Shown here piece by piece: positions 1 through 2,414 of a DNA stretch of 5,604 nucleotides (positions are counted from its first letter, which is position 1; every line of letters begins with the position of its first letter). The stretch is from a virus (Duplodnaviria > Heunggongvirae > Uroviricota > Caudoviricetes). The position numbers and the translations under genes were made by a program. The stretch lies in the IMG/VR virus record IMGVR_UViG_2675903289_000011; one strand, written 5' to 3'. The notes beneath the pieces are model-generated. The model did no database searches, was not told where the DNA came from, and saw only the letters and a list, made by a program, of their open reading frames with translations.

Positions 1-321
1 GAAGGAGTGTCCGTTAAACTCAGGCTACCTCAATTTGCGCTGGGAAGTGGTGCGCAAGTTGCGTCTAGTGGCGATATTTATGGTTCAGTGTGGGAAAACA
101 ACTGGTTAAGCACATGGCTGCATAATCATGTCGTTCGGGATATTCGTCTTGGCAGCATTGAATATAAAAACGTATGGCGCGACTACGGCTTTGGCGATGC
201 GTCAGGTTATGTTTTAACAGCCGCAATTAACAGCAATGCGGATGATATTGTCGACACTGTTGCCAGAAGGCCAATTCAGAAATTGATTGGGGGAATATGG
301 TACAACGTGGGGAGTGTTTAA
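1..321 (+). CDS. Phage tail fibre protein, C-terminal variable (receptor-binding) part; the 5' end lies upstream of the window
   Basis: Frame 1 is open from the first base of the window to TAA at 319-321. The translation ends ...[18 protein letters not shown], and the last ~60 residues align by eye with the minus-strand fibre end (RDIRLGS / RDVRLGT ... RPIQKLI(G/N)G(I/T)WYNV). The stop is 1 nt before the ATG of a tfa chaperone gene, the usual fibre-chaperone coupling. Confidence 0.7.
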
Positions 322-322
322 G

Positions 323-850
323 ATGATGCACCTGAAAAATATTAAGGCCGGGAATCCGAAAACACCGGAACAATACCAGCTAACTAAAAAAGCGGGCGTG
401 GTATGGCTCTTTTGCGAAGATGGCAAAAACTGGTATGAGGAACAAAAGAATTTTCAGCCAGACACCATAAAAATTGCTTACGATGAGAACAACATCATCG
501 TTGCTGTCAGTAAAGACGTTTCAACTATTAATCCTGAAGGGCTAAGCATAGTTGAAGTTCCTGATATTACGGCAAATCGTCACGCAGACAATAACGGAAA
601 ATGGATGTTTCTGGATGGTAAAGTAGTAAAGAGGGAATATACAGAACAGGAACTGCAACAACAGGCCGAATCACAAAAGGCCGCATTGCTTTCCGAAGCT
701 GAATCAGTCATCCAGCCGCTGGAACGAGCTGTCAGGCTGAATATGGCAACAGACGAGGAACGCACACGACTGGAAGCATGGGAACGCTACAGTGTTCTGG
801 TCAGCCGTGTGGATACGGCAAATCCTGAATGGCCACAAAAGCCTGAATAA
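323..850 (+). CDS. tfa: Tail fibre assembly protein (Tfa / Mu U-like chaperone)
   Basis: ATG at 323 with GGGGAG 8 nt upstream; the ORF-track ORF 287-850 is trimmed to this ATG. Product [22 protein letters not shown]...DGKNWYEE...[18 protein letters not shown]...EWPQKPE, 175 aa. It sits directly after a tail fibre gene and is clearly paralogous to the convergent minus-strand ORF 879-1412. Confidence 0.85.
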
Positions 851-855
851 AAATT

Positions 856-875
856 AAGGCCCGATAGCGGGCCTT
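856..875. terminator. Hairpin AAGGCCCG-atag-CGGGCCTT between the two convergent tfa genes; candidate bidirectional intrinsic terminator
   Basis: Perfect 8-bp inverted repeat with a 4-nt loop, 6 nt after the tfa(+) stop and 4 nt after the tfa(-) stop. A T-rich tract (AATTTTTATTC) follows on the minus-strand transcript; the + side is less U-rich. Confidence 0.5.
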
Positions 876-878
876 CTC

Positions 879-1412
879 TCATTCTGGTTGTTCGGGAAAC
901 GTTACTGGCAGGCTGGAGGTGTCTGTGGATTCAACCTTCTGCGCATAGAGCATCCACTCGGTTAATTTTTGTTTATTCTCATCGGAAATGATGCCCAGCT
1001 GTAGCTGAGAGTCCCACAGCTGGGTTTTATCCCTGACGAGCTGCAGCAGGCTCTGCTTTTCATTTTCCGCTTGTTGCCTTTGCTCTTCCTCGGTATAAGT
1101 TCGCTTTATCACCGCACCATCTTTGAACATCCAGTTGCCCGAAATATCAGCCCGGCGATTTGCTGTAATATCAGGCAACTCAACGACACTTAAACCTTCT
1201 GGATTAATTGCTGATACATCCTTGTCTATAGCAATAATTATTCCCTCAACTGTGTAAGCCAGTTTTATTGTATCCTCCTGAAAGTTTTTTAATTCCTCAT
1301 GCCAATTTTTTCCATCTTCGGACCATAACCAGATAACATCAAAATTCTTTGTTAGCTGGTATTGTTCAACGGTTTTTGGATTACCTGCGACAATGTTTTT
1401 TAAATGCTGCAT
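879..1412 (-). CDS. tfa: Tail fibre assembly protein, second copy in inverse orientation (Mu U'-like)
   Basis: 177-aa [25 protein letters not shown]...DGKNWHEE...[18 protein letters not shown]...FPEQPE. By eye it is roughly two-thirds to three-quarters identical to the + strand tfa over the first ~110 residues and divergent at the C-terminus. Its ATG (1410-1412) lies 2 nt after the TAA (1415-1417) of the minus-strand fibre gene. Confidence 0.85.
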
Positions 1413-1414
1413 GA

Positions 1415-2411
1415 TTATACCTGCGATACGTTATACCATGTTCCGTTAATTAACTTTTGTATTGGTCTGAATACTGCCGGATCATCACCATCGACTTCAC
1501 CGATAATACCAAGCCCCGTGATTACATGGCCTGATTTTTCATACATCACGCCTTTCTTCATGGTCTAAACAACTCGTGTGCCAAGTCTGACATCTCTCAC
1601 ATAGCGGGAATCAAAGTTACCGTAATCCGAGGGATTAACACGTCCCGTAATATTTATGGTTTTATTACTTTGAATGCTTCCGGAGACAAAGCGCATAACA
1701 TGGACGTTATTAGCATAAACATCCAGATTACCATCGCCTTTTTGTTTAAAGCCCGTGTCATTATCACCCAATACAATCGAATTACCGCCAAGAGCACTGG
1801 ATGTTCCGATACCCAGTGCACCATTCAGTTGACCACCAGATAACGGCAGTGCACCAACATCTCCTGCTGAAGGTTTTCTGGTGGTGTAAAATTCGGACCA
1901 GTCGGCTTCAAAACCATAACCATCACGGGCTGAACGATAAAAAATACCGCCATTTTTATAATTAATCCGAAACTGAGCTGCAGGACAACTTCCTTCTCCC
2001 ATATAAAAATGAATAATTAACGTTGATGCACCACTANNNNNNNNNNNNNNNNNNNNNNNNNNNNNNNNNNNNNNNNNNNNNNNNNNNNNNNNNNNNNNNN
2101 NNNNNNNNNNNNNNNNNNNNNNNNNNNNNNNNNNNNNNNNNNNNNNNNNNNNNNNNNNNNNNNNNNNNNNNNNNNNNNNNNNNNNNNNNNNNNNNNNNNN
2201 NNNNNNNNNNNNNNNNNNNNNNNNNNNNNNNNNNNNNNNNNNNNNNNNNNNNNNNNNNNNNNNNNNNNNNNNNNNNNNNNNNNNNNNNNNNNNNNNNNNN
2301 NNNNNNNNNNNNNNNNNNNNNNNNNNNNNNNNNNNNNNNNNNNNNNNNNNNNNNNNNNNNNNNNNNNNNNNNNNNNNNNNNNNNNNNNNNNNNNNNNACC
2401 GAGGTTTTAGA
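1415..2411 (-). pseudogene. Alternative tail fibre variable C-terminal region (Mu S'v-like), interrupted by an in-frame TAG at 1565-1567; interior N-masked (2037-2397)
   Basis: The visible translation (1568-2036) is fibre-like: ...LGDNDTGFKQKGDGNLDVYANN...NPSDYGNFDSRYVRDVRLGTRVV*. After the TAG the same frame continues [49 protein letters not shown] to TAA at 1415-1417, collinear with the + strand fibre C-terminus. The 5' end is placed at the crossover site by inference. Confidence 0.6.
2037..2397. other. Run of N (masked or undetermined sequence, 361 nt)
   Basis: Literal n characters; content unknown. Falls inside the minus-strand tail fibre variable region and covers the left half of the putative crossover site. 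Confidence 0.99.
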
Positions 2412-2414
2412 TAA
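2398..2414. other. Visible right half of a Gin/Hin/Pin/Cin-type DNA invertase crossover site (gix-like); the left half is masked
   Basis: ACCGAGGTTTTAGATAA matches, from memory, the right part of the Mu gix consensus (...AAACCGAGGTTTTGGATAA) with one mismatch. It lies exactly where an inversion cassette of two convergent fibre/tfa pairs should end. Confidence 0.45.

Follow-up and report, generated by a model that had tools for sequence, protein, structure and literature searches.

A decayed Mu-type tail-fibre inversion switch probably marks the right end of a defective lambda-type prophage at ompW-trpA

Does the tail-fibre cassette carried by the viral record IMGVR_UViG_2675903289_000011 still act as a host-range switch, or is it what is left of one? 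The stretch of this record that we analysed, referred to here as the window, is 5,604 nucleotides (nt) long, and its letters are masked by runs of N at 2037-2397 and 2450-3626, except for an unmasked island at 2891-2950. A first-pass annotation of these letters had read the left part of the window as an invertible host-range cassette of the G-segment type, known from phage Mu, that ends at a gix-like crossover half-site; it placed the partner site and the constant region of the fibre gene upstream of position 1, and the invertase gene either in the masked DNA to the right or outside the window. Comparison with related loci bears out the kind of module, since relatives contain the inverted partner site, both orientations of the segment and an exchange of half-sites at the crossover core. 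We consider it very probable that the window covers the right-hand end of a defective prophage of the lambda type, located at ompW-trpA, which formerly carried a Mu-type G segment that is now dead.

The cassette consists of two convergent pairs of fibre-tip and chaperone genes, at 33-850 (+) and 879-2400 (-), facing a hairpin at 856-875. In the left pair, an open reading frame (ORF) of 104 amino acids (aa) at 7-321 (+) runs across a junction, and only its part at 33-321 (+) is fibre-derived. This part comprises the last 95 codons and the stop codon of a variable tip in the position of Mu Sv, with its 5′ portion severed by the insertion sequence (IS) IS600, and it is the same sequence as the C-terminus of the intact 918-aa fibre in the related locus L004 (9711-9999). 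The tip is followed by an intact tail fibre assembly (tfa) chaperone gene at 323-850 (+; 175 aa; PF02413, E = 8e-37), the orthologue of Mu U. The opposing pair is formed by an intact tfa′ chaperone gene at 879-1412 (-; 177 aa; PF02413, E = 5e-34), the orthologue of Mu U′, and by an alternative fibre tip, Sv′, at 1415-2400 (-). Sv′ is a pseudogene, visible at 1415-2036 and completed over the masked bases 2037-2397 from relatives; its translation aligns collinearly with the intact C-terminus of the fibre from the E. coli locus L001 and with Mu S′. The GC-rich hairpin between the chaperone genes has a stem of 8 bp, 6 of them GC pairs; its folding z-scores are -4.0 on one strand and -5.3 on the other, and on the minus strand it is followed by a T-run. 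It is likely a terminator serving both directions of transcription. The paired fibre ends and chaperones facing each other across a terminator hairpin, as described in the first pass, are thus all present.

Gene order and orientation are the same as in the Mu G segment (S-U-U′-S′-gin). Window positions 323-1450 are 82% identical in nucleotide sequence to U-U′, the chaperones share 82% (with U, over 175 aa) and 85% (with U′, over 177 aa) amino-acid identity with their Mu counterparts, Sv′ shares an 84% identical block with S′, and the 26-bp crossover site, built around the same GA core, matches gix at 23-25 of its 26 positions. In length the segment comes to 2.9 kb, compared with about 3 kb in Mu; the exact figure in relatives, 2,916 bp, agrees with the roughly 3-kb switch that had been predicted. 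The setting differs from that of Mu in several respects. Here the module lies on a lambda-type side tail fibre (PF08400, after J and lom) of a lambdoid prophage and not on a Mu tail, most of the Sv tip shows no relationship to Mu Sv, the invertase gene is a pseudogene, and the left third of the segment is replaced in the window by IS600. The cassette is a decayed copy of the well-known Mu-type switch.

The right boundary of the segment is a gix-like crossover site at 2389-2414 (+), visible at 2398-2414 and masked at 2389-2397, with its GA core at 2401-2402. The visible part, ACCGAGGTTTTAGATAA, agrees with the right part of Mu gix at 16 of 17 bases. With up to 2 mismatches allowed, nothing else in the window matches gix, so that there is no second gix-like site within it, and 200 shuffled sequences yielded no match at all (chance expectation 0). 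In relatives that are 100% identical to the window over 1-2036 and 2398-2449, the full site is TTCTCGTAAACCGAGGTTTTAGATAA, which is identical to Mu gix (TTCCTGTAAACCGAGGTTTTGGATAA) at 23 of 26 positions and reads TTCTCGTAAACC-GA-GGTTTTAGATAA when divided at its core; one E. coli locus scores 25/26. By homology with these relatives, the masked bases 2389-2397 are expected to be TTCTCGTAA. The half-site noticed in the first pass therefore stands, and the masked bases would, by the same homology, complete the 26-bp dyad-symmetric site that it called for. The pix sites of prophage e14, which have 8 mismatches to gix in 26 positions, were set aside as a comparison for the crossover site. Between site and invertase start lies a spacer at 2415-2468 (+), visible to 2449 and 100% identical to relatives, which is homologous to the spacer between gixR and gin of Mu (aligning at Mu 35,0xx, upstream of gin). 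The distance from core to start codon is 67 nt in relatives, equal to that in Mu.

The relatives comprise about 30 loci from about 20 assemblies, found via exact identity to proteins of the window (the chaperones and the 104-aa junction ORF). Besides the two fully identical stretches given above, they are 99.6-99.8% identical to the window over the shared parts of 3627-5604. Among complete E. coli genomes, none matches 1-2036 above 93%. The relatives include Shigella sonnei 866 (CP022672, locus L023; PMC6128377) and S. sonnei ATCC 29930 (CP026802, locus L035; PMC9430107). Accordingly, the window almost certainly comes from S. sonnei or a very close relative. A lambdoid prophage has inserted at ompW beside trpA, and the locus forms its right end, with the genes in the order J and lom, fibre, tfa and tfa′, silent tip, recombinase remnant, tfa remnant, S-adenosylmethionine (SAM) methyltransferase, second tfa remnant, Rha and ash; the same architecture occurs in E. 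coli at the ompW site and at potB. The fibres of L004 and L008 have a PF08400 N-terminus (E = 3e-69), with J and lom upstream, as in the lambda Stf type. Given this Stf-type N-terminus, the Mu G-gin module sits on a lambdoid side fibre. The lambda-type side-fibre module, a PF08400 fibre after J and lom followed by a PF02413 chaperone, is found in the relatives, and the window retains its tips and chaperones.

Seven of these loci (L004, L008, L010, L034-L036 and L023) contain the inverted partner site, TTCCTGTAAACC-GA-GGTATTCGATAA. Within the gene for the 918-aa fibre it occupies codons ~615-623 (...EYLGLQETVN...), and its junction motif is the same as in Mu S. Detailed comparison of L004 with L008 and L010 shows that the 2,916-bp segment is identical, with 0 mismatches, and is reversed relative to its flanks, which are themselves identical over 506 nt on the invertase side and differ by 1 mismatch in 1,856 nt on the side of the constant fibre region. 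Between the two orientations, the outer half-sites GGTTTTAGATAA and GGTATTCGATAA have changed places, with the exchange falling precisely on the GA core, and the inner half-sites stay with the segment, which is the expected product of a serine-invertase crossover. The uninterrupted identity shared by the two sites is only 12 bp, which argues against homologous recombination. Among the six assemblies that lack the IS600 junction of the window, two have orientation A (L004, L034) and four have orientation B (L008, L010, L035, L036; L035 and L036 were matched to L008 by their half-site pattern), and both orientations occur within S. sonnei (strain 866, L023; ATCC 29930, L035). All 14 assemblies with the IS600 junction share one orientation, which is what a frozen segment should show. 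For E. coli NCTC86, two assemblies (L037, L038) agree with each other in the orientation of the segment and are uninformative on ongoing flipping. NCTC86, Escherich's strain, has this prophage end at its ompW site too, together with the 60-codon recombinase stump described below and a frameshifted fibre.

Next to the right site, relatives carry a pseudogene where the invertase is expected. In the window this Gin-like remnant would lie at 2469-2709 (+), which is wholly masked; its position, including the start at about 2469, which is expected to be a GTG codon, comes from alignment to relatives and Mu. The relatives' stump (VLIGYVRVSTNDQ...GDALVV; 12082-12322 in L003) has 60 codons, followed by a TGG>TGA change at codon 61 and a second TGA at codon 65, and through a 3′ deletion its homology to Gin is lost near codon 80, beyond which comes the remnant of a tfa C-terminus, joined directly to the stump. 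The stump is identical to Mu Gin at 57 of 60 residues (95%) and 75% identical to PinE, and its match to the resolvase catalytic domain (PF00239, E = 3e-15) covers only 69 of 145 profile positions. About 240 nt of gin 5′ sequence are retained, with ~96% identity to Mu over the first ~190 nt and a sharp drop after the first stop. The stump is identical in all relatives and in both orientations, apart from one silent single-nucleotide polymorphism that separates sublineages. Of the two places that the first pass had offered for an invertase gene, the masked DNA to the right was correct as to location, the start being 67 nt past the core; as to a functional gene it failed, because every relative has only the 60-codon stump nearby. 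Moreover, the window has 422 masked bases after the start at 2469, and then the unmasked island, which is not Gin-like and contains an in-frame stop at 2931-2933, limiting any ORF from 2469 to at most 154 codons. Regardless of what the N runs cover, the canonical position therefore cannot hold an intact invertase. For annotation, the calls '60-aa recombinase family protein' and 'hypothetical protein' at this locus should be taken as pseudogene fragments of gin and Sv′.

The fibre tips are damaged as well. On the minus strand, Sv′ has a premature amber codon (CAG>TAG) at 1565-1567, where L001 has CAG (Gln) in an otherwise identical context. The change costs Sv′ its last 49 residues, namely the changed Gln and those of a 48-aa ORF downstream, and the TAG is found in all S. 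sonnei-type loci examined. In L008, L035 and L036 Sv′ is the expressed tip, yet the amber codon splits the gene into ORFs of 875 and 48 aa. One orientation was therefore already defective before the IS600 insertion. The earlier description of the fibre sequence holds for 33-321 and 1415-2036; it missed the TAG and took in bases 1-32, which belong to IS600.

These 32 bases are the outer part of the right end (-) of IS600, an element of the IS3 family whose remainder lies to the left of the window, and they are 100% identical to the ends of other IS copies in L003-L010. The full element in relatives is annotated as 'IS3-like element IS600 family transposase' (99.5% identity). Hallmarks of IS600 are a terminal inverted repeat ending ...CA, a transposase of the orfAB type and target duplications of 3 bp. 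The duplicated target, ATT, is seen in L023, and window positions 33-35 (ATT) are one copy of it. At the junction, IS600 occupies 8447-9710 in L003 and 4763-6026 in L023. Position 1 and the DNA leftward of it are thus IS600 and not the constant region of the fibre gene, which the first reading had placed directly upstream.

What lies beyond the element differs among the relatives. In S. sonnei 866, IS600 has simply inserted into the segment, so that Sv is cut 612 bp from the position of the left site, and this site lies ~1.85 kb upstream of the point corresponding to window position 1. In the other 13 of the 14 assemblies with the junction, the left partner site was not found in the 6-10 kb upstream that were examined, and IS600 has three different left neighbours: lysis genes (e.g., L003), the hok region or a methylase gene. 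The predicted distance of about 1 kb to an inverted partner accordingly fits neither S. sonnei 866 nor these 13 assemblies. Differing left neighbours without a left site indicate IS600-mediated deletion or rearrangement. Across S. sonnei assemblies, then, the same IS600 insertion has four different left neighbours; IS600 has also struck the constant region of the fibre gene independently in L010 and L034. The prophage is thus in the course of being dismantled by IS600.

The window could itself derive from an allele of the S. sonnei 866 type. Its left gix site and the 5′ part of its fibre gene would then persist ~1.85 kb upstream, where TTCCTGTAAACCGAGGTATTCGATAA would stand in inverted orientation, and a 4.2-kb segment would still be flippable in trans, although it would yield no working fibre. 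L023 has exactly this structure, with the same IS junction, the 3-bp duplication and both sites. We nevertheless regard this origin as unlikely for the window: only one of the 14 assemblies with the junction is of that type, and no IS600-bearing allele was met in the other orientation.

For the segment and its decay we propose the following course. A side tail-fibre gene (stf type) of the prophage would once have borne a G segment of the phage-Mu type. In the intact form, a Gin-family serine invertase would bind two inverted 26-bp gix-like sites, one within the fibre gene at the boundary between its constant and variable parts and the other 67 bp ahead of the start of the invertase gene. Aided by Fis on an enhancer within the 5′ part of that gene, the enzyme would cut at the central GA, rotate and rejoin the ends, flipping 2,916 bp. 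The constant part of the fibre would thereby be read into either Sv and U or Sv′ and U′, altering host range, and the central hairpin would halt transcription in either orientation. In the Hin system the enhancer is ~100 bp from the site (PMC3798978); by analogy, the ~240 nt of retained gin sequence would cover the region where a Fis enhancer is expected. The copy in the window would be dead and frozen, with IS600 through Sv, an amber codon in Sv′ and, as read in relatives, a stump for an invertase, and in most relatives IS600 would also have mediated the loss of everything upstream. We infer the dependence on Fis and an enhancer, the content of the masked DNA and the identity of the flipping enzyme. 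As a disabled textbook host-range switch, the window cassette would be ordinary in itself and would document IS600-driven prophage decay in S. sonnei.

The relatives raise a further question, as the same two stops and the same deletion junction occur in both orientations, with both sites and the gin 5′ region kept. Since one and the same dead invertase stands beside both orientations, the simplest reading has the death of the gene precede the last inversions, which would have relied on an enzyme acting in trans. Trans-inversion has a precedent in PinQ of the Qin prophage, which flips the P segment of e14 (PMC12529663), and Gin-family invertases are common on enterobacterial plasmids (1,461 records). 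Tentatively, S. sonnei relatives with both sites (e.g., ATCC 29930 and the L004 strain) may represent an orphan switch whose own gin died first and which has flipped since, driven by an invertase elsewhere (on a plasmid, in another prophage or in an infecting phage of the Mu or P1 type). Such a switch might serve a host function such as phage exclusion and not phage host range. The related loci are of modest interest for a clean natural reciprocal exchange of half-sites at the gix core beside a dead resident invertase, and they add to the evidence from PinQ and e14 that fibre switches of cryptic prophages can be operated in trans.

A role for the host has also to be weighed for the remnant in the window, whose chaperones or tip fragments might, by analogy, have been recruited to interfere with incoming phages. 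The two tfa ORFs have remained intact, with 100% conservation among S. sonnei assemblies, and the chimeric StfE2 of e14 offers a precedent (PMC12529663). Against recruitment, both fibre tips are truncated in the window, and one promoter-like site was found where 4.5 were expected. Furthermore, S. sonnei is a young clone, so that conservation is expected without selection. We judge recruitment to be quite improbable, and prefer to read the window cassette as a dead switch.

Several observations weigh against that reading of the window. The N runs exceed the corresponding intervals in relatives, read from ~20 distinct assemblies: the first is 361 nt compared with 296 (+65) and the second 1,177 nt compared with 447 (+730). 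The excess totals 795 nt, and its 65-nt part is not a multiple of three; the ~30 loci from the protein-identity look-ups all have a shorter spacing than the window. Either the source differs from every locus read, with ~0.8 kb of extra DNA beyond the site on its right, or the lengths of the N runs are not true to scale. The island at 2891-2950 is absent from all relatives of the locus. An invertase gene of 582 nt could physically fit inside 2951-3626, where no relative has one. The invertase region, the left half-site and the 5′ part of Sv′ are masked in the window, and their state is read from relatives only; the window stops at position 1, and the left neighbour of its own IS600 lies outside it. 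Finally, no trans-acting invertase was identified in S. sonnei genomes.

Attempts to account for the extra DNA gave the following results. A gapped pattern made of 2431-2449, N441 and 2891-2917 had no match in viral or metagenome contigs, and no complete E. coli genome has both pieces of the composite 2398-2950 adjacent to each other. An insertion of IS1 or IS600 was rejected as the source of the 730 nt, because neither element has a fitting length and the island does not derive from an IS. The 60-mer was likewise rejected as part of an invertase, having no similarity to Gin in any frame and an in-frame stop.

The room left by the longer mask on the right, 730 nt more than in relatives, could be taken to favour a live and complete switch, with its partner site and constant region just upstream of position 1 and a functional invertase behind the mask. 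The gix half-site and the convergent cassette are real, and an intact relative exists in L004 with its 918-aa fibre. Such a switch is still less probable than recruitment by the host, since bases 1-32 are an IS600 terminus, Sv′ carries the TAG at 1565-1567, only 422 nt follow position 2469 before non-Gin sequence with an in-frame stop, and all relatives have the 60-codon stump. Least probable of all, RecA recombination between short inverted repeats or an assembly error might have produced the two orientations in place of a site-specific invertase, as the absence of an active invertase at the locus and the shared orientation of the two NCTC86 assemblies, with no sign of rapid flipping there, would allow; the exchange point, though, falls within a 12-bp identity that is far below what RecA needs for efficient recombination and coincides with the Gin crossover core, and six independent assemblies give two orientations with clean reciprocal half-site swaps.

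Mu-type switches in other settings resemble the decayed one described here. The P segment of e14 with PinE (stfP-tfaP-tfaE-stfE-pinE) is the same switch in a cryptic prophage with a decayed fibre gene (the stfE pseudogene), and it is flipped in trans by PinQ of another prophage (PMC12529663). It differs in that PinE is intact there and the P segment is 1.8 kb long; the invertase remnant described here is 75% identical to PinE. The C segment of P1 and P7 with Cin has the same design, and the chaperones here are ~82% identical in nucleotide sequence to U and U′ of P7, but P1 and P7 are plasmid prophages with an intact cin. In Shigella, Tominaga and colleagues reportedly described the Gin/Pin-family genes pinB, pinD and pinF, of which pinF is said to be defective and pinD to lie on a defective Mu prophage. 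Their loci are reportedly in S. boydii, S. dysenteriae and S. flexneri and are not this lambdoid locus of S. sonnei. The pinB, pinD and pinF loci are possible sources of trans activity.

To the right of the switch, the window holds cargo and prophage-end genes. A gene for a class I SAM-dependent methyltransferase lies at 3580-4248 (-), with its last 47 nt masked (PF08242, PF13489; annotated in L001 and L002). The block 3627-5604 is matched in 4,580 of 5,426 complete E. coli genomes, and in some relatives this stretch is split by IS1 (e.g., L004 13477-14245). At 4350-4574 (+) there is the C-terminal remnant of another tfa gene, a 74-aa PF02413 fragment in relatives, where it is annotated as a partial tail fibre assembly protein; a hairpin-type sequence comes after it at 4596-4644. 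Further right, a remnant of a DUF4376 gene, interrupted by an internal stop (4685-4903), precedes a gene for a Rha-family regulator at 4986-5543 (-; PF09669, E = 3e-27; annotated in L002), at the prophage end near the ompW/trpA junction. The minus strand of 4986-5604 as a whole holds Rha and then the start of an ash-family gene at the junction between prophage and ompW.

The unmasked island at 2891-2950 (+; 60 nt) is itself a hairpin-type sequence like those that follow tfa remnants, unrelated to the invertase, and is a 76% identical direct repeat of 4596-4644. A scan with the exact 60-mer found only two unrelated loci in genome contigs, both linked to ipaH3, and none in metagenome contigs. 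Exact copies lie ~280 nt upstream of the type III secretion system effector gene ipaH3 at prophage ends in E. coli and S. flexneri (L011 and L012, both at 4001-4060; L013, 5724-5783; L014, 6916-6975). Their position at ipaH3 prophage ends suggests recombination between the cargo regions of prophage ends. Serial tfa C-terminal remnants, each followed by a related hairpin-type sequence (CCGCAGCACGT...ACGTGCTGCGG), flank cargo such as the methyltransferase gene; such remnants are seen in the window at 4350-4644 and 2891-2950 and in L003 at 12311-12470, and they resemble scars left where recombination has struck the 3′ ends of tfa genes repeatedly.

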